A stretch of DNA of 64,000 nucleotides from a virus, in IMG/VR virus record IMGVR_UViG_3300031519_004866, one strand, 5' to 3'. The notes under the pieces are model-generated. The model did no database searches and was not told the DNA's origin. It was given only the letters and a program-made list of their open reading frames with translations. The position numbers were made by a program, and so were the translations under genes. Of the stretch, positions 23,318 through 54,299 are shown piece by piece. The number at the start of each line of letters is the position of its first letter. Position 1 is the first letter of the stretch.

Positions 23318-23330
23318 CGTTTATGGGTGG

Positions 23331-23525: not shown

Positions 23526-23570
23526 ACTATTTTTCCTTTTAAAATGCGGCATTCGTTTGCTGCATGTTCT

Positions 23571-23599
23571 ATTATATAAGCCTAGACTGTGTTTGTCAA
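23571..23599 (-). promoter_or_regulatory. Consensus sigma70 promoter for Hc1-like gene
   Basis: TTGACA-N17-TATAAT, perfect match. Confidence 0.85.
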
Positions 23600-23626
23600 G
23601 CATTAAAGTGGTTAAATACGTATATA

Positions 23627-24607
23627 ATGAATGATTTTACTTTAATACCGTTTCACAATATTGTTAAGTTTGGGCAAAAGACCATGCTTGACCAGCCATT
23701 GTTTAATGTTAGCTGGATATTAGGCCGCTTTTGTAATTACAGTTGTAGCTACTGTTGGCCGTATGCAAACACAAATGTACCGGATCATCAGGAGTTTGAA
23801 ATATATACTAATGCGCTTGATGAGATAAAACGTCAGGCTAGAGATAATGGCTTTACAGAATTCCACTTTAGCTTTAGTGGTGGTGAGCCTACTGCGTATA
23901 AGAAGTTTGGTGATTTAATAGAACACTATGCCAACGATGATGATGCTAAGTATCTAAGTTTGCATCTAACAACGAATTTAAGTCCAGGTAGTAAATGGTG
24001 GAACAGATTTATTGATGCTACACAGCATTTACACCGTCGAAGTATTACTGCAAGTTATCATGCAGAGTTTGCTAATGAACAAGAGTTTGGAGATAAATGT
24101 CTTCAGCTTATGAAAGGAGGAGTTTATGTTACGATCAATCAAGTTATGGTTCCTGAAATGTTTGAGGAACTTTACGAACGCCTGGAACGATTTGCCACCA
24201 GAGGTATCAATGTCACTCTCAAACCCCAATCTGACCCCACCGCATCTTTCGTTGTACATGGATACACTGAAGAACAAATCACAAGAATGCAAAGAGGATT
24301 CCCACAGCACTGGAAAGAAAAAGAAGTAATGCAAATGTACATGGAAGATGCCAAAGGCAACGACTATGGGTTGGACCAAGCTGAACGCATGAACGCTTTT
24401 GGATTTAATAAATTTAAAGATTGGACATGTAACGCAGGATATCAAAGCTGCATTATAAGCGGTGATACTGTCAAGAGAGCATATAGTTGTAGCGATAAAC
24501 CATTAGGTACGCTACAGGGCGGTTTTACGCTGTTTAAGACACCAACTAAATGTATTACCGATACATGTGTAAGTAGTGCAGACAGTAAGATACCAAAGGT
24601 AAAGTAA
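23627..24607 (+). CDS. Radical SAM protein 1 (C-terminal Twitch/SPASM-like)
   Basis: CNYSCSYC, SFSGGEPT, C-terminal C..G...C...C.....C; start revised from 23564; TAAATA at 23613-23618. Confidence 0.9.
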   Translation: MNDFTLIPFHNIVKFGQKTMLDQPLFNVSWILGRFCNYSCSYCWPYANTNVPDHQEFEIYTNALDEIKRQARDNGFTEFHFSFSGGEPTAYKKFGDLIEHYANDDDAKYLSLHLTTNLSPGSKWWNRFIDATQHLHRRSITASYHAEFANEQEFGDKCLQLMKGGVYVTINQVMVPEMFEELYERLERFATRGINVTLKPQSDPTASFVVHGYTEEQITRMQRGFPQHWKEKEVMQMYMEDAKGNDYGLDQAERMNAFGFNKFKDWTCNAGYQSCIISGDTVKRAYSCSDKPLGTLQGGFTLFKTPTKCITDTCVSSADSKIPKVK

Positions 24608-25209
24608 TGAAGATTGATATTCAAGATATAAAGTTTTGGATGGACGCTATTCGCAACAGCGAAGATAGAGACCGTACACTTGAAAGTTTTTGGGGAGGCC
24701 AGTTAAAATCAAAAACTTGGTTAATTGAAACTTTAGAAAAGTCTAATCATGTTGCCAATGCTGAAGTAGTTATATTTGGTGGATGGAATGGAGTGTTAGC
24801 TAACATGCTGTTTAATAGTAGCATAGGGTTTAAACATATTACAAGTGTAGACATTGATCCTGTATGCGAAACCGTTGCATTGACAATTAACAAACGTCAA
24901 GAAATGGAAGGACGTTTTATAGCAGTAACATCAGATATGTGTGATTACGAATATACAAATAAACCTTATTTTGTTATTAATACAAGTTGCGAACATATTA
25001 GTCAACAACAATATAATAAATGGTTAAGTAATGTTCCAGAAGGCTCGAAGATAATATTACAATCAAATAACTATTTTGACCTTGAAGAACATGTTAACTG
25101 TAGTGCATCATTAGAAGAATTTGCAAGAAAGTCTAAGTTAAAAGTATTACACTCAGCTGAATTAGAATTACCTAAGTACAAAAGATTTATGATTATAGGA
25201 AACCTTTAA
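24607..25209 (+). CDS. Class I SAM-dependent methyltransferase-like protein
   Basis: VIFGGWNG, SVDID, INTSCEH motifs; TAATG coupling. Confidence 0.7.
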   Translation: MKIDIQDIKFWMDAIRNSEDRDRTLESFWGGQLKSKTWLIETLEKSNHVANAEVVIFGGWNGVLANMLFNSSIGFKHITSVDIDPVCETVALTINKRQEMEGRFIAVTSDMCDYEYTNKPYFVINTSCEHISQQQYNKWLSNVPEGSKIILQSNNYFDLEEHVNCSASLEEFARKSKLKVLHSAELELPKYKRFMIIGNL

Positions 25210-26291
25210 TGTTTGACTTTAATGATCTAAAAACTATTCACATTGAGCTAACAACAAACTGTCAAGCAAAATGTCCAATGTGTTCAAGAAACATACACAG
25301 CGGAGTAGAAAATCCGCTATTACGAATAGTACAATGGACATTGGACGATTTTAAAACTATTATTAACAAAGAAGTACTAGACACAATTAACCGTGCGTAC
25401 TTCTGTGGTAACTTTGGCGATCCATTACTAAATGACAGTCTTATTGATATGTGCAGATATGTAAAGGACACCAGTCCTAAGACAGCAATAGGTATACATA
25501 CAAACGGTAGTTTAAGGAATGCAAAATGGTGGTCAGATCTAGCAAAAGCATTACCAGAAGACCATTGCGTTTACTTTGCTCTTGACGGACTAGAAGACAC
25601 TCATAAATTATATAGAGTTGGCACAGATTGGAATCGTATTATTGAAAATGCAAAAACATTTATTGCAGCCGGAGGCCGTGCTAACTGGACATATATCAAA
25701 TTCAAACACAACGAGCACCAAGTTGATAAATGTAGACAAATTGCAAAAGATTTAGGCTTCCAAGATTTCACAGTTAAAAACACATCAAGATTTTTAGTTG
25801 AGCCTAAGTATGATGTATGGGATAAAAATAAAATTCCACTGTATAGTTTAGAAGCACCATCTGATACCGAAACACACTTTTTACCTAAAGAAGTTATTGA
25901 CAATTATAAATCAGTTTTAGACGAAGCAGAAATAGATTGTCATGTACAACAAATAAAAGAAATATACATTGATGGTTCTAAAACAGTATTACCATGTTGT
26001 TGGTTAGCACAAACTCCAATGACTCATTATGATCCTGCACATGTTTGCGAAGATGTTATAGATATGTTAAGAGGACAATATAGTAAAATGATAAGTGACT
26101 TTGGCGGTATAAGCAATCTTGATGCAACTAAAGGAATAAAAAATATTATTGACTCTGACGTTTGGCAAAACATATGGAAAAAGAAATGGAATGAAGATAA
26201 AATGCTAATGTGTGCAAGAACATGTGGTAAGTTTAAAACATTTAATATCTCACAACCACAAGATCAATTTATTGAAAGAGAAATGTTATGA
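25209..26291 (+). CDS. Radical SAM protein 2 (C-terminal SPASM/Twitch)
   Basis: CQAKCPMC, FCGNFGDP, HTNG, FALDG, PCCW, C.RTC. Confidence 0.9.
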   Translation: MFDFNDLKTIHIELTTNCQAKCPMCSRNIHSGVENPLLRIVQWTLDDFKTIINKEVLDTINRAYFCGNFGDPLLNDSLIDMCRYVKDTSPKTAIGIHTNGSLRNAKWWSDLAKALPEDHCVYFALDGLEDTHKLYRVGTDWNRIIENAKTFIAAGGRANWTYIKFKHNEHQVDKCRQIAKDLGFQDFTVKNTSRFLVEPKYDVWDKNKIPLYSLEAPSDTETHFLPKEVIDNYKSVLDEAEIDCHVQQIKEIYIDGSKTVLPCCWLAQTPMTHYDPAHVCEDVIDMLRGQYSKMISDFGGISNLDATKGIKNIIDSDVWQNIWKKKWNEDKMLMCARTCGKFKTFNISQPQDQFIEREML

Positions 26292-27694
26292 CAGATTGGC
26301 ACTACGATAAAGAAGATACTAGATTAGGCAAGTTTCAAAGAGAGCTTGAATCTGTTTCTAGTAGTACGTTTTGTGTACTTCCGTGGATACACATGGCAAC
26401 TAGGCCTAACGGTGATATGCGCTTATGTTGTACTGCTAATGCTAGTGGAGCTGGAGACGATCACGAAGTTGGTCTTGTAAAAATGGAAGATGGCAAACCT
26501 GCAAACTTTGGCAAACATACTCCAATGGAAGCATGGAATAACGATTACATGAAAAGTGTACGTACAACTATGCTTAAAGGAGAGATCCCTGCAAGTTGTA
26601 AAGGATGTTTCAAAGAAGAGTCACAAGGCATTGTTAGCAAACGTATATGGGAAAGTGCAACATGGAAAAATGATGAAGGTATTGATATACCAGAACTTAT
26701 TGCACAAACACAAGAAGACGGAACCGTGCCTGAACAATTAAAATATCTGGATCTAAGATTAGGACATACATGCAATATTAAGTGTGTAATGTGTAGCCCG
26801 CATGATTCAAGTAAGTGGGTTGCGGACCATAAAAAACTTATTCCTGTACTACAAGACCCAGAAGTTAAAAGACAAATGCAATGGGATAAGAAACTTTTTA
26901 ACAACAAATGGCACGAAAAAGATGCTTTTTGGCAAGAACTCAATGCGCAAATACCTTACCTTAAACAAGTATATTTTGCTGGAGGAGAGCCGTTAATGAT
27001 CAAAGAGCATAAACGCTTTCTTAAAGAAATTATTACACAGGGCTATGCTGACAAAATTTTAGTAAGGTACAACTCCAATGGTTTGCTAGTTGACAACGAG
27101 TTAATTGATATATGGAGTAAGTTTAAGAAAGTTAAATTTGCAGTAAGTATCGACTCGTATAAAGAGCGTGACGAATACATTAGATTTCCAACTAACTTTA
27201 AACAAGTTGAAAGCACATTACATTTACTAGATAACACTCCCGACAACATTCATGTTAGCATTGCAACAGCAGTACAAATATTCAATATAAAAACTATACC
27301 CGAATTTATTAAATGGAAAGTTAATAGTAATTTTAAAAAGATGAATGTTGGTTTGATTGATGGACATATTATGGGAGGCGGCCTTTTAAATGCACACTTA
27401 GTACACATACCAACATTTTTAAATATTACAATACTGCCTGAAAAAGACAAGCAAGAAGTACGTGAAAAGTTCGCTGAACTAAAACAATGGTTATGGAATA
27501 ACTTTACACAAGACGATGAGTTTTGGAAACACAATCCTAAAGGTTGGCGCCAATGGGAAGGGTTACTAAAGCACATGGATAGTTGTGATAACAGTCATAT
27601 GTTACCTGGCTTTAAAGAGTATGTAAATAAATTAGATGCAATCCGTGGCTTGAATGCCGCATCAGTATTTCCGGAGTTATCACATTTACTATGA
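26288..27694 (+). CDS. Radical SAM protein 3 (N-terminal Twitch-like domain)
   Basis: N-terminal FCVLPW...RLCC...C.GC; CNIKCVMC; FAGGEP; YNSNG. Confidence 0.92.
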   Translation: MTDWHYDKEDTRLGKFQRELESVSSSTFCVLPWIHMATRPNGDMRLCCTANASGAGDDHEVGLVKMEDGKPANFGKHTPMEAWNNDYMKSVRTTMLKGEIPASCKGCFKEESQGIVSKRIWESATWKNDEGIDIPELIAQTQEDGTVPEQLKYLDLRLGHTCNIKCVMCSPHDSSKWVADHKKLIPVLQDPEVKRQMQWDKKLFNNKWHEKDAFWQELNAQIPYLKQVYFAGGEPLMIKEHKRFLKEIITQGYADKILVRYNSNGLLVDNELIDIWSKFKKVKFAVSIDSYKERDEYIRFPTNFKQVESTLHLLDNTPDNIHVSIATAVQIFNIKTIPEFIKWKVNSNFKKMNVGLIDGHIMGGGLLNAHLVHIPTFLNITILPEKDKQEVREKFAELKQWLWNNFTQDDEFWKHNPKGWRQWEGLLKHMDSCDNSHMLPGFKEYVNKLDAIRGLNAASVFPELSHLL

Positions 27695-28701
27695 CAGATA
27701 TTATTAAGATTGTTAATACTAGAGAAGAAGATTATATAGCAATTACATACTTCCCTACAGATATTTGTAATTTTGATTGCACGTATTGTTTTCCAGGAAG
27801 TCACCCATCTAAATATAGATACAGAAAAGACACAGACTTTGTCATTGACAACTTTAAAAAATTATTTGCTTTTTATAAATTAAAATTTAATAAATCTAAA
27901 ATATATTTTGAAATTGCCGGTGGCGGCGAACCAACACTATGGCCGGATTTATTAAAATTTTGCAAAGAAATTAAAAAAGTTCCAGACTTATCTATAGCAC
28001 TAGTATGCAACGGATCAAGAACACTTCGTTGGTGGGACACTATTATTCCCTATATTGACGAAGTTATGTTAAGTTACCATAACGAATTTACAAAAACAGA
28101 TCATTACATCAATGTAGCAGATTTGATTTGGGAGAATGGTAAGAAAGTAAATGCTATGGTATTAATGGATTATCCTAATTGGGATAAGTGTATCGATGCA
28201 ATTGAACAAATGAAACAAAGTAAATACAACTGGTTTATAAATGCAAAAGAAGTAGTAACTGCTCCAGGGCACGATGTAGAATCATATACTTTAGAACAAA
28301 AAGAATATTTAAAACAACCTATTAAGCGGTTGCCTGATTCAAGTTATATACTAAACAATCTACAAGATTATAGAATGGTCGAAAGTGTTGCAATACTTAA
28401 TAACGACAAAGTAGTTACAGCAGGTCCTAATTATTACTTAATAAACTCTATTAATAATTTTAAAGGATGGGCATGTAACGTAATATCTGAAAAAATAACT
28501 ATTTTTCCTTCTGGCAAAATAACAGGATCGTGTAATATAGACTTTGATTATGATTTAAATTTATACTCGACCACGTTAGAAAAAGACTTAAAACAAGTTA
28601 CATTACCTTATGTAACATGTACTATGAATTGTTGTGCTTGTCTAAGTGATAATCACATTACAAAATCAAAGCCAGCTATTATTCCTGCAGTACCTTTGTA
28701 A
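27691..28701 (+). CDS. Radical SAM protein 4
   Basis: CNFDCTYC, GGGEPT, CNGS, C-terminal Cys cluster. Confidence 0.9.
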   Translation: MTDIIKIVNTREEDYIAITYFPTDICNFDCTYCFPGSHPSKYRYRKDTDFVIDNFKKLFAFYKLKFNKSKIYFEIAGGGEPTLWPDLLKFCKEIKKVPDLSIALVCNGSRTLRWWDTIIPYIDEVMLSYHNEFTKTDHYINVADLIWENGKKVNAMVLMDYPNWDKCIDAIEQMKQSKYNWFINAKEVVTAPGHDVESYTLEQKEYLKQPIKRLPDSSYILNNLQDYRMVESVAILNNDKVVTAGPNYYLINSINNFKGWACNVISEKITIFPSGKITGSCNIDFDYDLNLYSTTLEKDLKQVTLPYVTCTMNCCACLSDNHITKSKPAIIPAVPL

Positions 28702-29602
28702 GAGGTATATCAGCAGCACACGTACACCATTTACGAGTACAAGTTATCCATTCTTCAGGCTGCTCAAAACTGCCATCATAGATGTTACCTATACTTCCAC
28801 CTACTCTACAAGTAGCACGATGTACATCGCCATCCCAATTAATCATTAGGCTTTCAATTCCTGCACTGCATTTCCAACCTTTAAATTGATTTAGGTGTTG
28901 TTTAATAACATCGTTGGCATGCATCTTAGTTGTGTCGTCAATAATTACATTAGGATTTACGGTAGACGTTCTGTCTAATATCCATTCTAAATCTTTACCT
29001 TCATATTTCAAATCATCAAACACATCATGGTCACCTTCTGTCCATCGTATTCGTCTTACAACATAAGGAATACAGTGTCCATCAAACATTGTAGCACACT
29101 CTTTTACTCTATCCATAAATTGATGATGTGCCATTAAGTTAACTTGAAATGGCTTTTGTGTATACGCACCTTCATTTAATTGAGAAAACAATAATACTGT
29201 TTCTGCGCATCGTCTCCAATTTTCAGTATCTTCTACGTGCAAACTAAACACAATGTGACTTACATTAAGATCGTTGTAGTACTCGGCTGTGCGGGTTCCG
29301 TTGGTAGTTACGTTAACCCACTCAAGCTGTTGACCTTGCATTGCATGATCAACTAGTTCTACAAACTGTGGATGAACACACGGCTCACCGCCTGTGAAAC
29401 TTACACGTATTGGCTTGCCAATTTCCCCTAGTGCATCAACTGCATCTAACAATACTTTAATATTTGTGTGTGGGCTAGTGTTGTCATGAATTGCTGCTGG
29501 GCAATAACTACAATCTAAGTTACAGCGTTTACCTAAATTCCATTCAACATGAACGCTATCTTGTCGATCATAACTAGAAGCTATTTTAAACATACGGCGC
29601 AA
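28679..29602 (-). CDS. Radical SAM protein 5
   Basis: CNLDCSYC, FTGGEP, TTNG, C.AG...C...C...C.C. Confidence 0.9.
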   Translation of the reverse strand: MRRMFKIASSYDRQDSVHVEWNLGKRCNLDCSYCPAAIHDNTSPHTNIKVLLDAVDALGEIGKPIRVSFTGGEPCVHPQFVELVDHAMQGQQLEWVNVTTNGTRTAEYYNDLNVSHIVFSLHVEDTENWRRCAETVLLFSQLNEGAYTQKPFQVNLMAHHQFMDRVKECATMFDGHCIPYVVRRIRWTEGDHDVFDDLKYEGKDLEWILDRTSTVNPNVIIDDTTKMHANDVIKQHLNQFKGWKCSAGIESLMINWDGDVHRATCRVGGSIGNIYDGSFEQPEEWITCTRKWCTCAADIPLTKVLQE

Positions 29603-30857
29603 ACTCTGGATTTATAACTTCAAACGGTCCTTGCTTACGACTTTTGTCTAAGTTACGATTAAAGTTAATACAGTCTTGCCATAACTCGTCGTGTAAATCG
29701 TCTGCTTGTAAGAAGTTAATATTATCCTGAATCTGCGTTAATGTAAAATCTTTAATTCTGCTATCACTTTTTACAAGTTTGTAATCTAAAACTTTTTCTT
29801 TCATTGCTTCTAGTTTATCAATTACTTGTAGTTTTAGTTCATTAGGAATAACCTGTGCTGATAACGCCTTAGGATATTGTACTCTATGACTGTAGAATAT
29901 AATTTCCATGTTCTCCATAAAGTACTCAATTACTTTATCAATTTGCATTATATTGTTTGACTGTACAGTAAATGCTCCAACAATTCTACTAACTGTAGGA
30001 ATTGTTTTCATAATTTTAATATTTTCTTCAATCTCAATAAACTTGCCATTGCCTCTAATGTATTCATAGATATCGTGTATACCGTCTATGCTTACATTAA
30101 CAGCAACACTTTTAAACTTAGGCCAATATTCGTGTACAGTTCGACCGCCCTTAATACCAAGTGTAGTTCCGTTAGTAGCATACTTTAATTCAATGTTCTC
30201 TCCATACGGTGCTAACATATCTAAAATTTTATAATGTTGAGGATCCATTAATGGTTCGCCGCCTGCAAACTCTACTCGTCTAAAGTAGGGCAATAGTTTC
30301 TTAAAACTACTCCACCAATTATCTGTATCTTCAAATGCATCAATATATTGACCTGGCTTTTTAACCAGTGCATTAACTGTTGGAATGAGAAAGTTATTTT
30401 CTTTTTTGTAAAATTCTGTAACTTGATCCCAGTCTTTCCATTGTGTGCTATCTAACGGGTTACACATACGACATTTAAGATTACATAAGTTGTTTAACTT
30501 TACTTCCATTGTAGGTATTTCAAATGGCATTGAATAATCATCTTCTAAGGCGTCTAATGCATTAGGATATAAATTAATCCTAGCTTCTGGTATAACACCT
30601 TCTATATGTCGCTGACGTAAACTTTGAACTCCTTGGTCTTCTAACCTAAAACAAGGTGCGCATACTTCAGGTCGTTCGTCATTCATTACCTGCCGGCGTA
30701 CCTCTTTAATCTTGTCTCCGTTCCAAATTTCTTCTAGTGTGTTATCTTTGATATCGCCAATAGGAGCACTGCGGCAACAAATCTTAATTGCGCCATCTTC
30801 TCTAGTTGCTAATCCTGTAAAAGGATGCATACAAAAAGTTTTACTGTTGCATGGCAT
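29586..30857 (-). CDS. Radical SAM protein 6 (N-terminal Twitch-like domain)
   Basis: FCMHPF...ICC...C..C; CNLKCRMC; FAGGEP; start revised to 30857 (SD GGAG). Confidence 0.92.
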   Translation of the reverse strand: MPCNSKTFCMHPFTGLATREDGAIKICCRSAPIGDIKDNTLEEIWNGDKIKEVRRQVMNDERPEVCAPCFRLEDQGVQSLRQRHIEGVIPEARINLYPNALDALEDDYSMPFEIPTMEVKLNNLCNLKCRMCNPLDSTQWKDWDQVTEFYKKENNFLIPTVNALVKKPGQYIDAFEDTDNWWSSFKKLLPYFRRVEFAGGEPLMDPQHYKILDMLAPYGENIELKYATNGTTLGIKGGRTVHEYWPKFKSVAVNVSIDGIHDIYEYIRGNGKFIEIEENIKIMKTIPTVSRIVGAFTVQSNNIMQIDKVIEYFMENMEIIFYSHRVQYPKALSAQVIPNELKLQVIDKLEAMKEKVLDYKLVKSDSRIKDFTLTQIQDNINFLQADDLHDELWQDCINFNRNLDKSRKQGPFEVINPEFAPYV

Positions 30858-31581
30858 TGGTAACTCCCCATTGTCTTTCTTGGCACCAAAAACATTTTTT
30901 ACATGTTGGAACATATTGTCCTGGCTTGTATGTTGCGTAGTCTAATCCTTTAAACACTTCCGGATATTGCTCATTATCACCTTCGCAACTTCTTGTTATA
31001 TTGAGTAACTCGGCAATATCATATTTTATAAATTGCCCAATAATCCAATCTTTTCTAGTTTCTATAAATGGGTGACAAACTGTAACTCCCATATGTAACA
31101 TTATAGCATCTATTGATGGTGTTTGTCTATCATTTAATGCACCTTCTAACTCTACATCGGGGTTTAATGTTACTCCTGCAAACCATGCATCTAACTTTTC
31201 CTTGTGTGCTAGATACTCATTAAACGATCGTAAAATAATTCTGTTTCCAGATTTCATTTTACCATTTTCGTCTTTGATCATAGTTGTGTGTGGTTCTTCT
31301 AGATCGGGTGGTATAAAGTTTGTGTGTCTTATAAATTCAAGTTCTGGAAATTTAGCAATAAACCAATCAAACACTTCAGCTGAAATGTGTTCTTGCCATG
31401 GCCTTGTTTTCCAACAGCGTATCTGTGTACTAATATGTACCCTGCAATTTACAGGTAAATTTTTACATACCAAATATGTTAATAATGCACTGTCTGCGCC
31501 ACCGCTAAGGCTTATGCCAATATTTCTCCATTTTGGATCAATGGGGAAATCTACATGATCTATTTTAATCCACTTACGCAT
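30841..31581 (-). CDS. QueC-like PP-loop ATPase
   Basis: SLSGGADSALL PP-loop; TRSC...CKKCFWC.ER zinc motif; start revised to 31581. Confidence 0.75.
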   Translation of the reverse strand: MRKWIKIDHVDFPIDPKWRNIGISLSGGADSALLTYLVCKNLPVNCRVHISTQIRCWKTRPWQEHISAEVFDWFIAKFPELEFIRHTNFIPPDLEEPHTTMIKDENGKMKSGNRIILRSFNEYLAHKEKLDAWFAGVTLNPDVELEGALNDRQTPSIDAIMLHMGVTVCHPFIETRKDWIIGQFIKYDIAELLNITRSCEGDNEQYPEVFKGLDYATYKPGQYVPTCKKCFWCQERQWGVTNAMQQ

Positions 31582-31586
31582 GATAA

Positions 31587-31630
31587 TATTTACCAAGTTC
31601 TGTACGCAGTTAATACAGTTCCGGTAAATA
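31587..31630. promoter_or_regulatory. Back-to-back leaderless late-type promoters
   Basis: Minus TAAATA(31587-92) ttatc ATG(31581); plus TAAATA(31625-30) ttagt ATG(31636). Confidence 0.7.
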
Positions 31631-31635
31631 TTAGT

Positions 31636-38853: not shown

Positions 38854-38858
38854 GCTGT

Positions 38859-38874
38859 TATTTAACGATAAGTA
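38859..38874. promoter_or_regulatory. Back-to-back leaderless late-type promoters in a 26-bp gap
   Basis: Minus TAAATA(38859-64) acagc ATG(38853); plus TAAGTA(38869-74) ttact ATG(38880). Confidence 0.7.
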
Positions 38875-38879
38875 TTACT

Positions 38880-39695: not shown

Positions 39696-39697
39696 AT

Positions 39698-42132: not shown

Positions 42133-42137
42133 ATAGT

Positions 42138-42166
42138 TACTTATGTGCGTAGTTAACTTATAAATA
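42138..42166. promoter_or_regulatory. Back-to-back leaderless late-type promoters
   Basis: Minus TAAGTA(42138-43) actat ATG(42132); plus exact T4 late box TATAAATA(42159-66) gtaat ATG(42172). Confidence 0.75.
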
Positions 42167-42171
42167 GTAAT

Positions 42172-43140
42172 ATGGATAATAGATTAAGCCTGCCTGATAA
42201 TGAATTCGGCCAAGCAGCAGTATGCATTATCATAAACAATACTTGTAATCTTACATGTAATGAATGTGGTACATTGCAAAATTATAACTTTGCAGGAGTA
42301 ATGTCTTGGAAGGAAGAAAAGCATCTTTATGAAGAATGGGCTAAGAAAGCAAACTTCCCAGATATTGACATACTAGGAGGAGAGCCATATCTTAATCCTG
42401 AACTACTAGATTGGGCGTTAGGTATTAAAACCCTATGGCCAGAGAGCCGAGTGAGTGTTGTAACTAACGGAACACTATTAGGATTGAAAAAGAATGTCGA
42501 AGCAACTCGTACATTTTTAGAAGCAGGTGTGTGTTTAAATTTATCAGGCCATGCTCAAAAAGATGTTCCTAAATTTAAAATGTTCATTGATAAAATTCTA
42601 GAACCATTCGGCGACAGAGCTCAAAGGATAAATCCAGATTATGATGATCCACACGGAATTGAACATCTAGATATGTGGCAGATTGATGGACAGTATGCTA
42701 TTGGACACACTCTTGTAGATAAGATGTTTCCTAATTATATAAAAGAAGTAAAAGATAACACAATAATTTTAGATGATGGCGATAGAGAAAAGAGCCACGA
42801 TGCGTGTATATACGGACAACACTGTCATACGCTACAACGAGGCAAACTATTTAAATGTCCTCTAGTGTTAAACTATGACGAATTAAAAACACAAACATAC
42901 TACGAAGAAAGAGCATATCCATTATTAGAAGATTATAAAGCGTTAACAGTGGATCAAGACAAAGAAACAATGCAAGACTTTTTTAACAATATAGGAAAGT
43001 CAATTCCAGCATGTTCTTTGTGTGCTATGCATAAAAAACCAGATCCAAAAAAACTTTCAGTTGATGTAAAATTTGATAAAAACAGAAAGAAAGCATTCAA
43101 AGGAGTAGATCTTGTCAAAGTTAAAAATCTCACATCTTGA
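42172..43140 (+). CDS. Radical SAM protein 8
   Basis: CNLTCNEC, ILGGEP, TNG, C...C..L..G.LFKC, C.LC. Confidence 0.9.
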   Translation: MDNRLSLPDNEFGQAAVCIIINNTCNLTCNECGTLQNYNFAGVMSWKEEKHLYEEWAKKANFPDIDILGGEPYLNPELLDWALGIKTLWPESRVSVVTNGTLLGLKKNVEATRTFLEAGVCLNLSGHAQKDVPKFKMFIDKILEPFGDRAQRINPDYDDPHGIEHLDMWQIDGQYAIGHTLVDKMFPNYIKEVKDNTIILDDGDREKSHDACIYGQHCHTLQRGKLFKCPLVLNYDELKTQTYYEERAYPLLEDYKALTVDQDKETMQDFFNNIGKSIPACSLCAMHKKPDPKKLSVDVKFDKNRKKAFKGVDLVKVKNLTS

Positions 43141-43948
43141 GTGGCACGTAGCTCACTCATGTAATCTTACATGTGTAGGGTGTGGGCATTTTAGTAATCA
43201 TAGACATACAGGTATAGTAAAATATGACGAATTAGAATCTTGGTACAAGAGTTGGGCTCATAGACTTGATCCGAAAACAATTGACATACTAGGAGGAGAG
43301 CCTCTACTAAACAAAGACATTTATAACATTCTTTTCTTAACAAGAAAGTATTGGCCAGACTGTGAAAATTTAAATTTACAAACTAATGGCTTTTTGCTTT
43401 ACAAGTATCCTGACTTACCTAAAGTGCTAGAAGAAACTAATATATCTATTAGCCTTAGTAAGCACAGTACTAAAGAAGCATATATGAAAAAGTTTACGCC
43501 TGCAGAAGAATTACTATTACAATGGAAAAAAGATTATAATATTAAAGCAGAAGTTTCCCCATGCCATACATATTGGTTTGAAATATATAAAGGGTATGGA
43601 AACAACATGATGCCCTATGAAGATAATGATGCACAGAAAAGTTGGGATAATTGTATTACCGGACAAGATTGTTTCCAACTACTAGATAACGAAATATACA
43701 AATGTTCGCCACTAGCATATCTTCCGTTTCAAAAGAAATTATACAACTTATCTCCTAAGTGGGATCCCTATTTAAAGTATAAGCCAATAACAGCAGATTG
43801 CACAGATCAAGATCTAGCAGAGTTTTTTGCTAGAGGATGTGAAAGTTTTTGCTCAATGTGTCCTACTAATCCAAAGCGTATGGATCAACAAGGTGATCCA
43901 ACAACACCAAGATCACACTACGAAAACATAAAAATTCAACAGGTATAA
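43112..43948 (+). CDS. Radical SAM protein 9
   Basis: CNLTCVGC, ILGGEPLL, TNG, C...C.QL....YKC, C.MCP; tandem paralog of protein 8. Confidence 0.9.
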   Translation: MSKLKISHLEWHVAHSCNLTCVGCGHFSNHRHTGIVKYDELESWYKSWAHRLDPKTIDILGGEPLLNKDIYNILFLTRKYWPDCENLNLQTNGFLLYKYPDLPKVLEETNISISLSKHSTKEAYMKKFTPAEELLLQWKKDYNIKAEVSPCHTYWFEIYKGYGNNMMPYEDNDAQKSWDNCITGQDCFQLLDNEIYKCSPLAYLPFQKKLYNLSPKWDPYLKYKPITADCTDQDLAEFFARGCESFCSMCPTNPKRMDQQGDPTTPRSHYENIKIQQV

Positions 43949-43949
43949 T

Positions 43950-44885
43950 ATGCAAAAGTTTCCATACGATAAAAAACATTTACCATTTGGACATTCAGGA
44001 GCAGTCCTCGATCAAGAAGTAATGAACTTTTTGAACATGATACCTCTTAGATTCACAGAACACATGTATGATGTAAATGTAACTGAAGAATATTTAGAAA
44101 GATATCATGCTTGGATTAGAATGTCAGCTCTAAATTTAATAGCAGGGCTAGATGATTTTCCTTACAAATGTTACTCTCATGGTACTACTGAATCATTTGA
44201 TAAGTTTTACATGAAGCACAAAGATAGAAGATTTAGATGCTTTAGAGGTGAATATCTATATCATCAGTTAGCATGGCGTGATAAATTTAATTGGTTGTAT
44301 GCCGATGATGATTGCTTAGATGCTAATGACGCACTAGTTATTAGTTTACCTTTTAGTAATACAGGAAACAAACACAAGTTACACGAAGCAGCATTAAATG
44401 AATGCGATAGACTAGGTATACCTGTTTTACTTGACTGTTGTTACTTTGGTATATCGTCTGCTATAGAATTTAATTTTAAGCATGAATGTATAACTGATAT
44501 TGTTTTTAGTTTATCAAAAACATTTCCAGTAGCACATGCAAGAATAGGTATGCGTTTAAGCAAATACGATGACGATGATACTTTGTTTGTTTATAACAAA
44601 AACAGTTACGTGAATAGACTAGGTGCTTATATAGGTTTACAGTTAATGGAAAATTACAGTCCTGACTTTATCTACAAAAAGTATAAATCACAACAATTAG
44701 AATTTTGTAAACATCTGGATGTTGAGCCTAGCAGTACTGTGTTGTTTGGTATTGCGCCTCAAGATAAGTATGTTGAATACAATAGAGGCAGCGGCAGTCC
44801 TGATGCTGAACTAAACAGGCTTAGTTTTCATAAATTTTTATCTATGTCAGTTGAGGAGTTTGCACAGTGCATAAAGCAAGAGTAG
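43950..44885 (+). CDS. PLP-dependent fold-type I enzyme (aminotransferase-like)
   Basis: SLPFS, LDCCY, FSLSKTF.....RIG (PLP lysine). Confidence 0.78.
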   Translation: MQKFPYDKKHLPFGHSGAVLDQEVMNFLNMIPLRFTEHMYDVNVTEEYLERYHAWIRMSALNLIAGLDDFPYKCYSHGTTESFDKFYMKHKDRRFRCFRGEYLYHQLAWRDKFNWLYADDDCLDANDALVISLPFSNTGNKHKLHEAALNECDRLGIPVLLDCCYFGISSAIEFNFKHECITDIVFSLSKTFPVAHARIGMRLSKYDDDDTLFVYNKNSYVNRLGAYIGLQLMENYSPDFIYKKYKSQQLEFCKHLDVEPSSTVLFGIAPQDKYVEYNRGSGSPDAELNRLSFHKFLSMSVEEFAQCIKQE

Positions 44886-46054
44886 TTAATATTGAATGGA
44901 CTGCTGATAATAACAGATGGAATCTTGATAAAACGGTATTCAGCGAATTAAAACTAAAGTGGATATTCAAAGAATTTAAACAAGCAGCCAAAGACGGATG
45001 TAATACTGTTATTGCAGTAATGATGATCGATGGTGTTCTAAACCCAGAGCCAGATATTTGGCCAGGTGAAGTTGCTAGAATGAAAGAACGTTGTACAAAA
45101 CTAGGAATAGAAAAACTAGTGTTTGTTTCGGGTCATGGCGGTTACGAATATATAGTACCTTTAGCATTTGATAAAATATATGCTATTGATTACACACTCC
45201 AATTTACTTATAAGTCTTACGAAGATAGAATTACCAAAAACAAACTAACTGAATATAATCCACATGCAGATAAATTTCTATTTCTTGGCGGCGTGCCATC
45301 GAGGATGAATCGTATAGGATTGCTTTACAAGTATTATAAACTTGGAATGTTAGACTACAATGCTATTTGGACATTCTTTGTTCCATGGACAGAAAGTGAA
45401 CGCAAAGTGTGCAAGGATTTAATGCACATGTTAACAGACGAAGATCTAACCAAGTTTTACAATTTTGCCAAAAGAAGAATAGGCGATGAGTACGAACATG
45501 CTAAACAGTTTTTTGCAGATAACACAAGTGACTGGCATGATGTTGGAGAAACTGATTGGGCTAGAGCACCTGCACTGATTAACAGTAGTATATTTCCAGA
45601 AACGTGTTTAAGCATTATTAGTGAAGGTCCTAACTATTGGGATCACAATGCAAACAATTCTTTTGTAACAGAAAAGTTTTGGAGAGCAGCATTTCACAAA
45701 CATCCGTTCTTGTTTGCGGGCGACTTAGATCAATTTAAATATATGGAAACTCTTGGGTTCCGAACCTTTGCAGAATATATGACTATACCAGAGTATGCAT
45801 ACCTTGAAACAGAGGAGCAACGTCTTGATGCAATTGTAACCAATACAGCAGACTTTTTAAAACTTCAGAAGCCACAAAAATTAATTGATGATATAGAACA
45901 CAACTATCAATTAGCAAAGCGTTATGTTGATAAGCAACATTTACTTCTTGATCATCTAGTTGATCATTATGGGGCACCAAGAAATGAAGTAAATTATTAT
46001 CTTAATCAAACAGGATATACTAATCTAGTACAGAGGCCGCCATCGTATGAGTAA
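44867..46054 (+). CDS. Putative glycosyltransferase (GT-B, GT10-like C-terminus)
   Basis: FLFLGG...R, SIISEG, FVTEK.W, PF...G....L..LGF.TF. Confidence 0.5.
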   Translation: MHKARVVNIEWTADNNRWNLDKTVFSELKLKWIFKEFKQAAKDGCNTVIAVMMIDGVLNPEPDIWPGEVARMKERCTKLGIEKLVFVSGHGGYEYIVPLAFDKIYAIDYTLQFTYKSYEDRITKNKLTEYNPHADKFLFLGGVPSRMNRIGLLYKYYKLGMLDYNAIWTFFVPWTESERKVCKDLMHMLTDEDLTKFYNFAKRRIGDEYEHAKQFFADNTSDWHDVGETDWARAPALINSSIFPETCLSIISEGPNYWDHNANNSFVTEKFWRAAFHKHPFLFAGDLDQFKYMETLGFRTFAEYMTIPEYAYLETEEQRLDAIVTNTADFLKLQKPQKLIDDIEHNYQLAKRYVDKQHLLLDHLVDHYGAPRNEVNYYLNQTGYTNLVQRPPSYE

Positions 46055-46961
46055 ATGTGCAGCATTTTATAAGCATACTAATGTGCGTAGCGGAAATAGA
46101 ATATTTCCTTGTTGTCGCTATAAAGAACCTATAGCTGTGTTCGACGGTAATTTAAACAGGGTACTTGACTTACCAGAGATGCAAAAGTTAAGAGAAACAC
46201 CTGTTGAAGATAACCCTAATTGTGCAAAATGTGTACACGAAGAGTCGTTAGGAAAAAACAGTTTGCGTGAACGCTTTAATGCTGAGTATAACACACAAGA
46301 AGTAAAATTAGAATATTTAGAAATAGGGTTTGATAATATTTGTAATGCAGCCTGTGATGGGTGTTATCCAGAGTTTAGCAGCGAGTGGGGTAAGATACTA
46401 GACCCAAACAAAAAGAATCATATTGTAAGCAGTGACGAAATAACTTCTATTCCAGATACTGTAACAAAGATATTATTCTTAGGAGGCGAACCATTAATGA
46501 CTAACAGACACAGACGCCTATTAGAAATGGTAACCGACCTAAGTAACATGACAGTAATATACAACACCAATGGTACATTTATGTTAGACAAAGAAACTAT
46601 AATACAACTTGAAAAATGTAAAAGTGTTGAATTTATTCTAAGTCTTGATGGCTATGGTGAGCTAAATGAGCGTGTAAGAAAAAACTGTAAATGGAGTAAG
46701 ATAGAACGCTTTATTGATCAAGTAAAGATATGTGGTTATAAATTAAGTGTAAACACTGTACTCCACAAAAATAACTATCACGGACTTGTTGATTTAGAAA
46801 ACTATATTAACAGTTTAAAAGATGTTGAATGGTCAGTAAACATACTTACATTCCCTCAAACATTAGATGTTAATACGGTTGAAAATAAACAAGCAGTAAT
46901 AGATAGTATAGTGAAAACAAATATAGCAAACAAGGAAGCACTTATTAAACATGTTACATGA
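46047..46961 (+). CDS. Radical SAM protein 10 (N-terminal Twitch-like domain)
   Basis: C....PCC...C.KC then CNAACDGC, FLGGEP, YNTNG, SLDG. Confidence 0.9.
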   Translation: MSKCAAFYKHTNVRSGNRIFPCCRYKEPIAVFDGNLNRVLDLPEMQKLRETPVEDNPNCAKCVHEESLGKNSLRERFNAEYNTQEVKLEYLEIGFDNICNAACDGCYPEFSSEWGKILDPNKKNHIVSSDEITSIPDTVTKILFLGGEPLMTNRHRRLLEMVTDLSNMTVIYNTNGTFMLDKETIIQLEKCKSVEFILSLDGYGELNERVRKNCKWSKIERFIDQVKICGYKLSVNTVLHKNNYHGLVDLENYINSLKDVEWSVNILTFPQTLDVNTVENKQAVIDSIVKTNIANKEALIKHVT

Positions 46962-47502
46962 TATTAGATTATACGCTGACTATGACAAGTTTTTACAAGT
47001 AGTAGAAGCAGCAAAGACTGCTATACCAAATAAGTTTTGTATTGTAGAACATCTAGTTAATGTAACAGAATATGATGACAGCCCTGACTTGACAGATATA
47101 CACCCAAAAGATAGAAATAACGTAGACTTCCGTGTCTGTATATTTTATCCAGACAAAGATAATACAATACCAAGACTAAAACCTGTGTGCGATATACTTG
47201 AAAATATGCAAGGAGTTGAACGTGCTGCAATTATCAACATAGGTCCTAAGTCTATTATGCCAAAGCACATTGATGATATGGAAAGACCTTTATACGAAGA
47301 AACTCCATTCTATAATGTGTTTACAGGTTTTCAAATTCCACAAGGAGATTTAGGTGTTAAAGTTGGAGAAGATTTAGCAGACGTTAGCAACCCGATAGTT
47401 TTTAATGCACAAATACCACACGAAGCATGGAATCAAACTTCGCAAGACTGGTTATCTTTACTGATATATATTAATAACGATACATTTAAAAAGGAACAAT
47501 AA
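46951..47502 (+). CDS. Asp/Asn beta-hydroxylase-like oxygenase
   Basis: P.S.MPKHID ... F....PHEAWN. Confidence 0.72.
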   Translation: MLHDIRLYADYDKFLQVVEAAKTAIPNKFCIVEHLVNVTEYDDSPDLTDIHPKDRNNVDFRVCIFYPDKDNTIPRLKPVCDILENMQGVERAAIINIGPKSIMPKHIDDMERPLYEETPFYNVFTGFQIPQGDLGVKVGEDLADVSNPIVFNAQIPHEAWNQTSQDWLSLLIYINNDTFKKEQ

Positions 47503-48554
47503 TGAAAGTATCTACTCACAACCATTGGGATCCCTTAGAAGAGATAGTAGTTGGAATAGCTGACCATGCTAGAGTACCAACTGTAGATCGTAGCACTATG
47601 AGCATGAGCTACACTAATCATCCTATGGATTTGATTAAACCTTTAGAGGGTGAATATCCTAAATGGCTTATTGATGAAGCAAATGAAGATCTACAAGGGT
47701 TAAGTGATGTACTATCTAAAGCAGGTATAAAAGTACACAGACCTATTCCAATTGATCACAGCAAAGAATTTAGTACTCCTGAATGGAAAACTACAGGATG
47801 GTATACATGGTGTCCTAGAGATTTACTATTGCCTATGGATAACTTAGTTATTGAAACTCCTAGTGCTTGTCGTGCAAGACAGTACGAAACTAGAGCATAC
47901 AGAGATATTATGTTAGAAGCAATTGCCGACGGTGTTGAATGGATTGCTGCGCCTAAACCAACCCTACCGGATGAAGGCTATCAGTTTGATGACATTGAGG
48001 GTAAACCCAGTTTGTTAAATCTAGAGCCTATCTTTGATGCACCTAACTGTGTACGTCTGGGCAAAGACATATTGTTTCAAATTAGCAACACAGGAAACCA
48101 TTGGGGATTAAAATGGTTGCAAAATGTACTAGAGCACAGAGGGTATCGTATACACCCTGCAGAACACATTTATAGTTACGGACACTTTGACAGCACAATA
48201 GTACCTCTACGTCCTGGATTAGTATTATTAAACAGTTCAAGAGTAACCGCAGAAAACTGTCCTAAAGTATTTGAGAAATGGGATAAAATTTGGTTTGATG
48301 ATTGTGTTGCCCAAGGCAGCAAAATTCCAGGAGGAGTTGCACCATGCAGTCCTTACATTGGTATGAACATTTTAAGTATTGATCATAATACAGTTGTTGT
48401 AGACGATACGCAAGAACCTCTAATGCGTGAGTTAGACAAGCACGGTATTACTAGTGTACCTGTACGCTTTAGACATGCTATGACTTTAAGTGGTGGGTTG
48501 CATTGTGCAACACTTGATTTAAAACGTAAAGGCGTATTGGAGGATTATACATAA
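47502..48554 (+). CDS. L-arginine amidinotransferase (StrB1/GAT family)
   Basis: HN.WDPLEE, CPRD, FDA, HFDST..PLRPG, GG.HC.T catalytic Cys/His/Asp. Confidence 0.92.
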   Translation: MKVSTHNHWDPLEEIVVGIADHARVPTVDRSTMSMSYTNHPMDLIKPLEGEYPKWLIDEANEDLQGLSDVLSKAGIKVHRPIPIDHSKEFSTPEWKTTGWYTWCPRDLLLPMDNLVIETPSACRARQYETRAYRDIMLEAIADGVEWIAAPKPTLPDEGYQFDDIEGKPSLLNLEPIFDAPNCVRLGKDILFQISNTGNHWGLKWLQNVLEHRGYRIHPAEHIYSYGHFDSTIVPLRPGLVLLNSSRVTAENCPKVFEKWDKIWFDDCVAQGSKIPGGVAPCSPYIGMNILSIDHNTVVVDDTQEPLMRELDKHGITSVPVRFRHAMTLSGGLHCATLDLKRKGVLEDYT

Positions 48555-49048
48555 TGTTAAAGTATTGGGGCAATGTAACTGACTTCTGGAAAGAAGATTT
48601 ACAGAATTACACATGGCCTGAGTCTGTAAGTACAGGACAGAACGAAAATTTTCATGATGCTTACTTTGATGAATCTAATAATTTAATGCAAGGGTTTGAT
48701 GGGCAATTGCCAACCTGCTGTGATAGATTCTTTAAAGAACTATACATTGAAAAAAAAGAAATTAGCAGCATAAGTTGGACACAAATTAAACCGTCAGGGA
48801 CTATTCCTGTACATGCAGATAAATTTTTTAAACTTAGAACAAAACATAATTTAGATATTGATGATTGTGTAAGATATCTTATATTTTTAGAAGATTGGAC
48901 GTTAGGTCATATGGTTGAGTTTGAGCAACAACCAGTTACTAAATGGAAAAAAGGTGATGTATGGACATTTACACACGACGATTTACACTGTGCTGGAAAT
49001 GCCAGTAACCATAACTTTAACACATGCCAAGTAAACACGAGGAAATAA
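48554..49048 (+). CDS. 2OG-Fe(II) oxygenase-like protein
   Basis: P.GTIPVHAD, R.LIFL.DW..GH, HCAGN. Confidence 0.78.
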   Translation: MLKYWGNVTDFWKEDLQNYTWPESVSTGQNENFHDAYFDESNNLMQGFDGQLPTCCDRFFKELYIEKKEISSISWTQIKPSGTIPVHADKFFKLRTKHNLDIDDCVRYLIFLEDWTLGHMVEFEQQPVTKWKKGDVWTFTHDDLHCAGNASNHNFNTCQVNTRK

Positions 49049-50175
49049 TGGAACTAACTTCTCTACAAAAAGAATGGAATAACTGTACACTTGAGTACGA
49101 TCTAGAAAGATTTAATTGGCCTGCATGGGCTTTAAGTGTTGTACAAGAAGTAGCGCCAACTGTTACTAAATTAGAAACACTACACGAAGTGCTATCTCCT
49201 AAAGAGATTGTAACAGTTAGTAAGCATGTACAGAATGCGTGTAGCCGTAAAGACTTTATGGAACGCTTTGATGCGTTTGTTGCTGAATACATTCCGCAGC
49301 GTATTGACGGTAAACGATTTATGATACAGCGCCAAGGAACATTGCGTGTTGTTATTCCAAATCAAGCAAAAGTAGGCAGACGTTTGCAGTTTCATCAGGG
49401 CATTTTTGTAGGCAACGGTAGAGGTTGTAGAACTATATGGACACCGTTCACTGAAGCTCGTGGCACTAATACAATGTGGATGGTTGACCTAGAAAACAGC
49501 CGCCGTATTACTAAAGACTTTGTTACAGAAAAATGGAGTCTCGAACGTATGGAAGATGAATGTTTAAAGGTTGCGTTTCCTGTTACTCTTAAACCAGGAC
49601 AAAGTCATTTATTTTTCCAAGAAATGTTACACGGCAATGTCAACAACGAAGAAGGATATACTCGTGTTAGCATGGATATGCGTATCTTAATTGAAGGTGA
49701 AGAATACGGACGCAGACATCCAGGAGGCTTTATGCGATTGCCTGGCGATCATGAAGTAGCAGAACTAGGAGACTATTCCGGCAAGAGTGCAATTACATAT
49801 GCAGGATGGGCTAGTGATTTTTCTAGGAATGTTACACTACCTATGCAAAGAGCAATTATTGATCAGTACTGCGAAAGAACAAATATACAATACACTAGTT
49901 ATGAATTTGAGAATGATCATTGTGATTGGCAGCCAAGTTTAGAATATTTTATTAAACAACAACCTGATGTGATTGTTCTTAACAGTATGTACAGCCTTAC
50001 TGATGATGCAGAGCGCAGAACAGAATTATTAAATTTAGCATTAAGATTAGGTGTAGAGTTGCATTTTGCAAACGAATTGACAGTTCTTAAAACACAAGAT
50101 GATTTAGATAAAATTGAAACCTATCTCAATTTTGCAGTAGAAAAATTAGAACCTTATGTTTGGGAATTAGTGTAA
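49048..50175 (+). CDS. StrG-like 2OG-Fe(II) oxygenase fused to a resolvase-like / 'sporadic carbohydrate cluster' domain
   Basis: FHQG...IWTP...HGN..N....TRVSMD.R N-domain; C-domain Q...I..YC...Y...E...S.Y.L......G.ELHFA.E; start revised to 49048 (TAATG). Confidence 0.6.
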   Translation: MELTSLQKEWNNCTLEYDLERFNWPAWALSVVQEVAPTVTKLETLHEVLSPKEIVTVSKHVQNACSRKDFMERFDAFVAEYIPQRIDGKRFMIQRQGTLRVVIPNQAKVGRRLQFHQGIFVGNGRGCRTIWTPFTEARGTNTMWMVDLENSRRITKDFVTEKWSLERMEDECLKVAFPVTLKPGQSHLFFQEMLHGNVNNEEGYTRVSMDMRILIEGEEYGRRHPGGFMRLPGDHEVAELGDYSGKSAITYAGWASDFSRNVTLPMQRAIIDQYCERTNIQYTSYEFENDHCDWQPSLEYFIKQQPDVIVLNSMYSLTDDAERRTELLNLALRLGVELHFANELTVLKTQDDLDKIETYLNFAVEKLEPYVWELV

Positions 50176-54268: not shown

Positions 54269-54299
54269 AATTTAATTCCTTTATATTTGTTACAATATC

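Follow-up and report, generated by a model that had tools for sequence, protein, structure and literature searches.

An island of radical SAM enzymes, oxygenases and predicted sugar-transfer enzymes among the fibre genes of a marine T4-like myophage

Layout of the island

The DNA described here, IMG/VR virus record IMGVR_UViG_3300031519_004866, is a stretch of 64,000 nucleotides (one strand, 5' to 3'; the window hereafter) that carries an island of tailoring enzymes built around radical S-adenosylmethionine (SAM) proteins, oxygenases and an amidinotransferase. An earlier reading of the letters and their open reading frames, here called the sequence-only reading, had described 27 kb of about 30 contiguous genes, and both the island and its coordinates proved right: 32 genes run from an ATG at 23627, which is in frame with a longer open reading frame starting at 23564, to a stop codon at 50175, and their ends overlap or abut. 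Non-coding DNA within the island is confined to three divergent gaps of 54, 26 and 39 bp. The island closes, as had been noted, at a tail-fibre-like gene on the opposite strand (50167-51645, minus), the product of which matches Mtd_N (E 7.3e-07) and carries GDDSS repeats. No membrane protein or transporter was found among the island proteins, the maximum 19-residue hydropathy being below 1.6 in every one, and no precursor-peptide gene is present, since there is no separate small reading frame and no intergenic space of more than 54 bp; hydropathy and the gap-free layout thus agree with the earlier reading on both counts.

The enzymes

Radical SAM proteins were called by the Pfam PF04055 gathering score (29.5 bits) together with the CxxxCxxC motif. 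Exactly ten genes score above gathering, at 33.9-49.6 bits (starts at 23564, 25209, 26288, 27691, 28679-, 29586-, 37158-, 42172, 43112 and 46047, a trailing minus denoting the minus strand), and the motif is kept in all ten, in agreement with the number first proposed. The best scores of these enzymes are to models of the twitch and SPASM type. The first (radical SAM A, 23627-24607, plus) is Cys-rich at its C-terminus, matches Radical_SAM at 4.5e-12 with the motif CNYSCSYC, and has 48% identical homologues in Bdellovibrionales. It is followed on the plus strand by a class I methyltransferase-fold protein (24607-25209), recognised by its motifs and by homologues that match Methyltransf_25 (4.2e-4) and Spermine_synth, which partners the core in 80/80 loci; by radical SAM B (25209-26291; Pfam 3.1e-08, CQAKCPMC); by an N-terminal-twitch radical SAM protein (26288-27694) that scores 397.8 bits against NCBIfam NF033640, for which the curated cut-off is 170 bits; and by radical SAM C (27691-28701; Pfam 1.7e-12), which is variable and missing from two relatives' loci (L005 and L011). 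Radical SAM D (28679-29602; Pfam 6.5e-13) and a second N-terminal-twitch protein (29586-30914; NF033640 319.7 bits) lie on the minus strand, as does radical SAM E (37158-38168; Radical_SAM 4.4e-11, Fer4_12 1.5e-09). Radical SAM F and G (42172-43140 and 43112-43948, spanning 42172-43948, plus) are paralogues identified by Pfam and the CxxxCxxC motif. The tenth, a short form (46047-46961, plus), is probably a third member of the N-terminal-twitch family, with a score of 164.8 bits that falls just under the cut-off.

The count of ten oxygenases is carried in part only. Four candidates match a family model: a prolyl-hydroxylase-type 2-oxoglutarate (2OG)-Fe(II) oxygenase (34971-35585, plus; 2OG-FeII_Oxy_3 3e-11) and an Asp/Arg beta-hydroxylase-family protein (41401-42132, minus; Asp_Arg_Hydrox 1.5e-06) lie above cut-off, while a weak Asp/Arg hydroxylase-like protein (46951-47502, plus; Asp_Arg_Hydrox 2.9e-4, 21.2 bits against a cut-off of 22.6) and a fusion of a 'sporadic carbohydrate cluster' 2OG oxygenase with a LIC12192-family domain (49024-50175, plus; TIGR04324 1.5e-21, TIGR04323 1.8e-10) lie below the curated cut-offs. 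Four more are small cupin-type paralogues on the plus strand (33878-34462 and 34459-34986, together 33878-34986; 39698-40198; 48554-49048) with an invariant P-x-H-x-D...H and a modest hhalign profile-profile match to the Asp_Arg_Hydrox family (E 6.5e-4), in which the HxD...H triad is in register. The remaining two are oxygenases by motif alone: a cupin-like protein (31636-32298, plus; invariant H80, D82 and H124) and an HxD...H protein (38880-39695, plus; invariant H178, R179, D180 and H237). Alignment of these two families with the hydroxylase family by hhalign gave a probability of about 2%, which is unusable, and the profile of the 38880 family found nothing meaningful in the PDB.

The amidinotransferase is the most secure single assignment and fully bears out the initial call. 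The product of 47502-48554 (plus) aligns along its full length, residues 3-349, with StrB1 (PDB 1bwd, E 1.4e-95), and the contexts of the catalytic Cys, His and Asp (HCATLD, FDSTIVPL and CPRD) are conserved; its dN/dS (ratio of non-synonymous to synonymous substitution rates) is 0.03. It is far nearer to StrB1 than to glycine amidinotransferases (AGAT; about 1e-58), and also nearer than to SxtG and HsvA. This closeness is only suggestive of an inosamine phosphate as acceptor, and Pfam and NCBIfam scans detected no inositol-phosphate synthase, inositol dehydrogenase or DegT/StsC-type aminotransferase in any island protein.

A fold-type I pyridoxal phosphate (PLP) enzyme is encoded at 43950-44885 (plus), again as first read. 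Its family carries an invariant SLSK and three homologues match Aminotran_1_2, the best at 5.9e-5; a single-sequence search of the PDB found nothing and a profile search gave weak aminotransferase matches only, to AspAT. This evidence supports its assignment as a class I/II-like aminotransferase. Among the predicted short-chain dehydrogenases/reductases (SDRs) one is strong and one weak: the former, of the NDP-sugar 4,6-dehydratase/epimerase type (32295-33209, plus), matches GDP_Man_Dehyd (2.1e-38), Epimerase (1.2e-37) and the LegB and RmlB models (about 1e-31), and the latter is a short Rossmann protein (36041-36643, plus) with weak SDR models, members of whose family match adh_short, Epimerase and KR. 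For the kinases that had been proposed, support is limited to a weak protein-kinase-like match of one paralogous family (profile against PDB kinases, E 1.3e-4), which comprises the products of 33178-33891 (plus) and 38158-38853 (minus). Two further genes encode a small protein with a weak GT1-like match (35540-36040, plus; Glycos_transf_1 0.0017, below cut-off) and a conserved protein that lacks a family match (36617-37174, minus; 47-85% identity in 24 loci).

The QueC-like gene of the sequence-only reading (30841-31581, minus) retains the PP-loop motif SGGADS and a C-terminal CxxCxxC, and its product is best described as a PP-loop ATP pyrophosphatase-like protein. It has no NCBIfam or Pfam match of its own and its profile finds no relative in the PDB; among its homologues, just two match Pfam QueC, at 0.0024, and ATP_bind_3 is matched at 0.023. 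The curated QueC model is not matched, and we rejected the assignment as QueC.

Sugar transfer predicted from fold

Two genes of the second half of the island belong to virus-only families that carry no sequence annotation, and their products were modelled with AlphaFold2 (AF2) from deep alignments. Single-sequence searches of the PDB found nothing for either protein, and the first has no sequence-family match. The model of that first protein (44867-46054, plus) has a mean confidence (pLDDT) of 90 and its top 50/50 VIA structural neighbours are GT-B enzymes, with Z 8.2-11.3 over 240-285 aligned residues; Foldseek matches are weak, at E 0.007 or worse. The model thus indicates a GT-B fold of two Rossmann domains and a predicted glycosyltransferase (GT), and the gene is found in 40/43 amidinotransferase loci.

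The second protein (40176-41414, minus; pLDDT 92) is predicted to be a fusion of a GT-A / nucleotide-diphospho-sugar transferase domain with a class I methyltransferase-fold domain. Foldseek finds LARGE1 (8e-6) and the GT domain of the collagen lysyl hydroxylase LH3, and VIA neighbours score Z 8-9.4 at residues 9-228, on the GT-A side, and 7.7-8.4 at residues 225-390, on the methyltransferase-fold side. The Z 8-9.4 of the N-terminal domain is common to glycosyltransferases and nucleotidyltransferases alike. Look-alikes of both proteins in the ESM Atlas form virus-only clusters. On these models the island holds predicted sugar-transfer enzymes, able to assemble or attach sugars. The absence of a scaffold synthase, as first stated, therefore holds only in the sense that no non-ribosomal peptide synthetase or polyketide synthase occurs in the island.

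A conserved and selected gene set

Comparison with 78-97% identical relatives gave pairwise dN/dS values of 0.03-0.2 for every measurable gene. The N-terminal-twitch gene at 26288 has 278 relatives in IMG/VR, the first seven genes of the island co-occur in most of 80 fetched loci, and the second half (40176 to 49024) keeps its gene order in another 30-40 contigs, some of them 145-364 kb long. Gene order among the relatives shows a stable core with gain and loss of cassettes. The low dN/dS, a mark of strong purifying selection, and the synteny conserved across viral contigs support the view that the island is a coherent, selected biosynthetic system; the relaxed selection or random assortment that would speak against such a system is not what the genes show.

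Probable organisation of transcription

The hexamer TAA[A/G]TA lies exactly 5 nt before the ATG at six of the six divergent unit starts (31581, 31636, 38853, 38880, 42132 and 42172). In the 54-bp gap (31582-31635) TAAATA precedes both start codons; in the 26-bp gap (38854-38879) one copy is TAAATA and the other TAAGTA; and the 39-bp gap (42133-42171) contains the window's sole copy of the T4-type late box TATAAATA, at 42159-42166 and 5 nt before the ATG at 42172. TAAATA also occurs 8 nt before the ATG at 23627, and the same hexamer and spacing precede a fibre-like structural gene that ends at 21166. The argument for these promoters is positional, resting on the unit starts, because TAA[AG]TA-N4-7-ATG is not enriched across the window (15 observed against 14.2 expected); motifs like those of the late-type promoters that had been proposed are thus seen at all unit starts but not as a window-wide signal. 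From this arrangement we infer late, near-leaderless transcription of the island units. Scans of the window for sigma-70 promoters and terminators were at background level.

With its single copy in 64 kb, TATAAATA falls below an expectation of about 9. At least one copy was present in all 100 shuffles, and such strong depletion is as expected of an active late promoter that is selected against elsewhere. With the hexamer only 5 nt from the start codon, a Shine-Dalgarno sequence cannot fit between them, and the late mRNAs may be leaderless or nearly so.

Three metatranscriptome libraries from two studies contain short contigs that together cover most of the island as well as the fibre gene. These contigs are weak evidence of expression, as RNA libraries may carry DNA, and their lack of coverage at 48.85-50.1 kb is no evidence of silence.

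The phage and the position of the island

The window is assigned to an uncultured marine T4-like myophage of the Melnitz/pelagimyophage group, because its adenylate-cyclase-like gene (60973-63024) shares 69% identity with the counterpart in Methylophilales phage Melnitz and 48% with the one in Pelagibacter phage HTVC008M, and because the backbone order thyX ... curli-region ... cyclase is common to the window and Melnitz. The distance from thyX to the cyclase gene is about 6 kb in Melnitz and about 37 kb in the window, and on this comparison the island appears as an insertion relative to Melnitz, inside a fibre-rich region. Fibre and baseplate genes lie on both flanks, and homologous islands of other lineages likewise terminate at Mtd_N/PTL_trimer fibre genes. 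At least 14 studies yielded near-identical DNA, in a total of 17 marine, seawater or brine runs, and a near-identity DNA search with the island found no match among 50,697 phage records.

A related, larger island lies on a 356-kb NCBI contig (L127), with at least seven radical SAM genes, TauD-family oxygenases, a fatty-acid-desaturase-family gene and a fibre-type gene at its end.

Comparison with known systems

Virus-encoded glycosylation of virions is known from mycobacteriophages of the Che8 type (capsid and tail) and from chlorovirus PBCV-1 (A64R), and involves soluble cytoplasmic GT-A enzymes. Both A64R and a Che8 glycosyltransferase are among the structural neighbours of the 40176 protein, a similarity at the level of fold only. 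To our knowledge these systems include no radical SAM, amidinotransferase or oxygenase expansions.

Closer in gene content are large hypervariable islands among the tail-fibre genes of marine T4-like phages. The host recognition cluster of pelagimyophages and cyanomyophages has been reported to carry glycosyltransferases and radical SAM cassettes (Zaragoza-Solas et al. 2020, PMC7029224), and the island agrees with it in its surrounding fibre genes, its glycan genes, its mosaic radical SAM cassettes and its occurrence in a marine T4-like phage. Neither the radical SAM cassettes nor the amidinotransferase nor a product was analysed at gene level in that study; the present analysis defines the structure of the cassettes, a conserved core of four genes and the GT folds. 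Synechococcus phage S-SCSM2R (ORF301-310, also ORF264-269; PMC12801897) shares an amidinotransferase that is 35.5% identical, radical SAM and 2OG oxygenase genes and a DegT-like PLP enzyme. Five annotated glycosyltransferases surround its amidinotransferase module. A second amidinotransferase is the immediate neighbour of kdsA and kdsB, and purified virion preparations were found to contain this second enzyme together with a hydroxylase encoded nearby (PMC12801897). The S-SCSM2R module differs in having one radical SAM gene and five Pfam-recognisable GTs, where the island has ten radical SAMs and GTs recognisable by fold only.

In Campylobacter phages CP220 and CPt10 an amidinotransferase gene is surrounded by five radical SAM genes, a group described as an 'interchangeable module' (Timms et al. 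2010, PMC2853527). These phages resemble the island in clustering radical SAM genes with one amidinotransferase in a T4-related myophage, but the amidinotransferase is only 23-30% identical, host and habitat are different, and neither fibre adjacency nor an oxygenase expansion is reported. An environmental T4-like genome has also been reported to contain 12 radical SAM genes (Nishimura 2017, PMC5332604). The system is thus not undescribed, as had been supposed: islands of such kind have been noticed before (PMC2853527, PMC5332604, PMC7029224, PMC12801897), though none has been characterised, and none of these four papers assigns a product. What is added here is a well-resolved marine example, the fold-level identity of two transferases and the separability of the radical SAM core from the sugar-transfer part.

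Outside phages, the streptidine branch of streptomycin biosynthesis is comparable in the end-to-end alignment with StrB1, the retained catalytic residues and the kinase-like and aminotransferase-like partners. It differs in its enzymes that form and oxidise inositol and in its DegT-type aminotransferase, none of which was detected in the island; the island, moreover, lies in a phage fibre region and includes GTs.

What the island may make

Sugar chemistry is the theme that the genes support best, because the island combines an NDP-sugar SDR, 'sporadic carbohydrate cluster' domains and GT-A and GT-B folds, is flanked by kdsA, kdsB and phosphomannomutase (PMM) genes, and has a cyanophage analogue among five glycosyltransferases. 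The reading that we favour, tentatively and at somewhat less than an even chance, is a late-expressed, wholly cytoplasmic pathway that would build and tailor an unusual sugar or short glycan and then transfer it to an acceptor, with virion proteins as the favoured target. Activated sugars would be supplied by the host and by flanking phage genes (the KdsA-type synthase, the CMP-sugar-type cytidylyltransferase and PMM) and would be oxidised or rearranged by the SDRs, radical SAM enzymes and Fe(II) oxygenases. The PLP enzyme would then transaminate a keto group, and the amine, possibly phosphorylated first by the kinase-like proteins, would become a guanidino group, for which arginine would be the donor; methyl groups would be added, and the GT-A and GT-B enzymes would attach the product to its acceptor.

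Three features make virion proteins, fibres first, the favoured acceptor: promoters of late type, a repeated location next to fibre genes, and a gene set that includes no membrane or export component. The decoration of virion proteins with sugars suggested by the sequence-only reading is accordingly best supported in its sugar chemistry; a virion-protein target is something we only infer. A more specific version, rather unlikely when taken as a whole, is that abundant marine myophages, in aerobic surface-ocean hosts, attach a guanidino-bearing hypermodified sugar to their own tail fibres or capsid using a battery of oxygen-sensitive radical SAM enzymes, including a four-gene core common to predatory Bdellovibrionales; virions would then carry a glycan of a new class, which would tune host recognition or protect the particle.

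Several observations weigh against the sugar pathway or narrow it. Late timing rests on one short motif only, six of the ten oxygenase candidates lack family-model support, the GT assignments are by fold only with middling Z-scores, and no sugar nucleotidyltransferase was found inside the island itself. The context of the radical SAM core outside phages also counts here. On a 2.2-Mb Bdellovibrionales chromosome the core adjoins the ribosomal-protein/secY/adk operon and there is no glycosyltransferase within 10 kb; distant single N-terminal-twitch homologues in cultured Hoeflea and Reichenbachiella stand in unrelated, non-glycan contexts; and long members of the family are tandem radical SAM fusions, some with tetratricopeptide (TPR) repeats, hinting at protein substrates.

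This core cassette, comprising genes like those at 23564, 24607, 25209 and 26288, recurs in metagenome-assembled genomes of Bdellovibrionales at 31-48% identity, and another contig has six radical SAM genes together with genes for a large Asp/Arg hydroxylase and a fatty-acid-desaturase-family protein. The N-terminal-twitch family as a whole comprises 1,162 clusters at 50% identity (E 1e-30 or better), among which no characterised member was found. Two metagenomic proteins of 1,100 amino acids (P0209 and P0265) join two N-terminal-twitch radical SAM units via TPR repeats, and three more (P0170, P0174 and P0191) are double or triple radical SAM fusions; the fusion partners in the family are tandem radical SAM units and TPR repeats only, with no sugar enzyme. 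Judged from these gene neighbourhoods, the radical SAM core can act without sugar transferases, and it may handle a protein or other substrate. The core and the sugar-transfer part are separable, and the sugar reading cannot yet extend to the core because in Bdellovibrionales the core occurs without a glycosyltransferase.

On the same 2.2-Mb chromosome the core lies between adk and an enoyl-CoA hydratase gene, beside a Pnkp/Hen1 RNA-repair pair, and there are no phage genes nearby.

Alternative products and targets

Were the sugar destined for the host envelope instead of the virion, modified Kdo-like (3-deoxy-D-manno-octulosonic acid-like) or other activated sugars would be fed into the inner core of host lipopolysaccharide (LPS) or into the capsule, altering the cell surface late in infection, which might, for example, keep progeny from being trapped on debris or shut out competing phages. 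Among the enzymes of the LPS core are protein-kinase-like kinases (KdkA and WaaP), Kdo transferases with a GT-B fold, and Fe(II)/2OG enzymes of the Asp/Arg-hydroxylase family that hydroxylate Kdo and lipid A (LpxO), all of which count in favour of such a target. KdsA-type and cytidylyltransferase genes flank the island, in S-SCSM2R they adjoin an amidinotransferase and 2OG oxygenases, and modification of the host surface has been proposed for such clusters by Zaragoza-Solas et al. (PMC7029224). The island, however, has no membrane-associated transferase, flippase or polymerase, none of its proteins specifically matches an LPS-core enzyme model, and late-type promoters leave little time for envelope turnover, so that we regard an envelope target as unlikely.

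The radical SAM core and the hydroxylases could also act directly on a phage (virion) or host protein, in the manner of enzymes that mature ribosomally synthesised and post-translationally modified peptides, by epimerisation, cross-linking, C-methylation or hydroxylation, with glycosylation of hydroxylated residues as a secondary step. Many of the twitch and SPASM-type models that give the best radical SAM scores are peptide maturases, N-terminal-twitch members are fused to TPR repeats and the Hoeflea homologue adjoins TPR proteins. The presence of prolyl-hydroxylase-type and Asp/Arg-hydroxylase-type oxygenases, the resemblance of the 40176 protein to the GT domain of LH3 and the lack of GTs beside the Bdellovibrionales core fit as well. 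Yet there is no precursor-peptide reading frame and no room for one, no collagen-like Gly-X-Y repeat was found in the adjacent fibre or in neighbouring structural proteins, nor any other obvious repeat target in that fibre, and the NDP-sugar SDR, the amidinotransferase and the PLP enzyme are small-molecule enzymes. As an account of the island, direct protein modification therefore seems to us improbable.

A quite doubtful product is a diffusible small molecule made in infection and directed at the host or at competitors, for instance a guanidino aminocyclitol, an aminoglycoside-like compound or some other metabolite. The affinity of the amidinotransferase for streptomycin StrB1 points that way, and the kinase-like, aminotransferase-like and twitch radical SAM proteins fit a logic of oxidation, transamination, phosphorylation and amidination; BtrN, too, is a twitch enzyme. 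The analogous genes of S-SCSM2R were labelled 'antibiotic synthesis genes' by their authors (PMC12801897). Set against this, the island proteins include no detectable inositol-forming or inositol-oxidising enzyme or DegT/StsC-type aminotransferase, there is no exporter or self-resistance gene, and release only at lysis gives no obvious benefit.

Least probable, and very unlikely in our view, is hypermodification of the DNA after replication and before packaging: T4 alpha- and beta-glucosyltransferases are among the top structural neighbours of the 44867 protein (Z 10.5, a value shared by many others), pathways of thymidine hypermodification include kinase, PLP and radical SAM enzymes, and the Campylobacter phages with analogous modules have a modified guanine, but the island sits among fibre genes behind late-type motifs, no hydroxymethylase or DNA-binding domain was detected, and thyX is a backbone gene because Melnitz carries it without the island.

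Whichever acceptor applies, islands of such kind take up 15-20% of the genome in phages that are found in many marine metagenomes. The identity of the product would reveal new radical SAM chemistry on sugars or proteins, could account in part for how host range is set in phages that infect the most abundant bacteria of the ocean, and would settle whether phage 'antibiotic synthesis genes' are glycan-decoration genes. Cultured carriers of analogous modules exist in Synechococcus phage S-SCSM2R and Campylobacter phages CP220 and CPt10.

Other genes of the window

Upstream of the island, a giant fibre-like protein of 2218 amino acids (7319-13975, minus) combines a T4 gp9/10-like N-terminus with a weak C-terminal match to Peptidase_G2, an intramolecular chaperone, and is probably a giant fibre or spike. 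Other upstream genes encode an immunoglobulin-domain protein, PMM, a glycosyltransferase-like PHROG member, the KdsA-type synthase, QueD and a fibre-like protein. On the downstream side are the Mtd_N fibre gene and genes for additional 2OG oxygenases, an FkbM methyltransferase and the CMP-sugar-type cytidylyltransferase. An HD_4 gene (RelA/SpoT-type hydrolase) and a ClpP gene are also present downstream (57404-57928, 58525-59082 and about 53945-54328), and the homologous position in a related contig (L129) is occupied by an RNA polymerase omega-like gene (RNA_pol_Rpb6).

Near the start of the window, a reading frame of 159 amino acids (624-1103, minus) has its sole match in the NTPase domain of bacterial DNA polymerase III alpha (E 5.9e-09), which is an unusual fragment to meet in a T4-like phage. 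Immediately before the island, a basic, helix-rich protein of 64 amino acids is encoded at 23331-23525 (minus). The overlapping plus-strand frame 23323-23634 looks spurious, as it is hydrophobic and kept in few loci only. A terminator-like hairpin comes after the 23331-23525 gene, and its promoter is a perfect TTGACA-17-TATAAT (12/12; 23571-23599).

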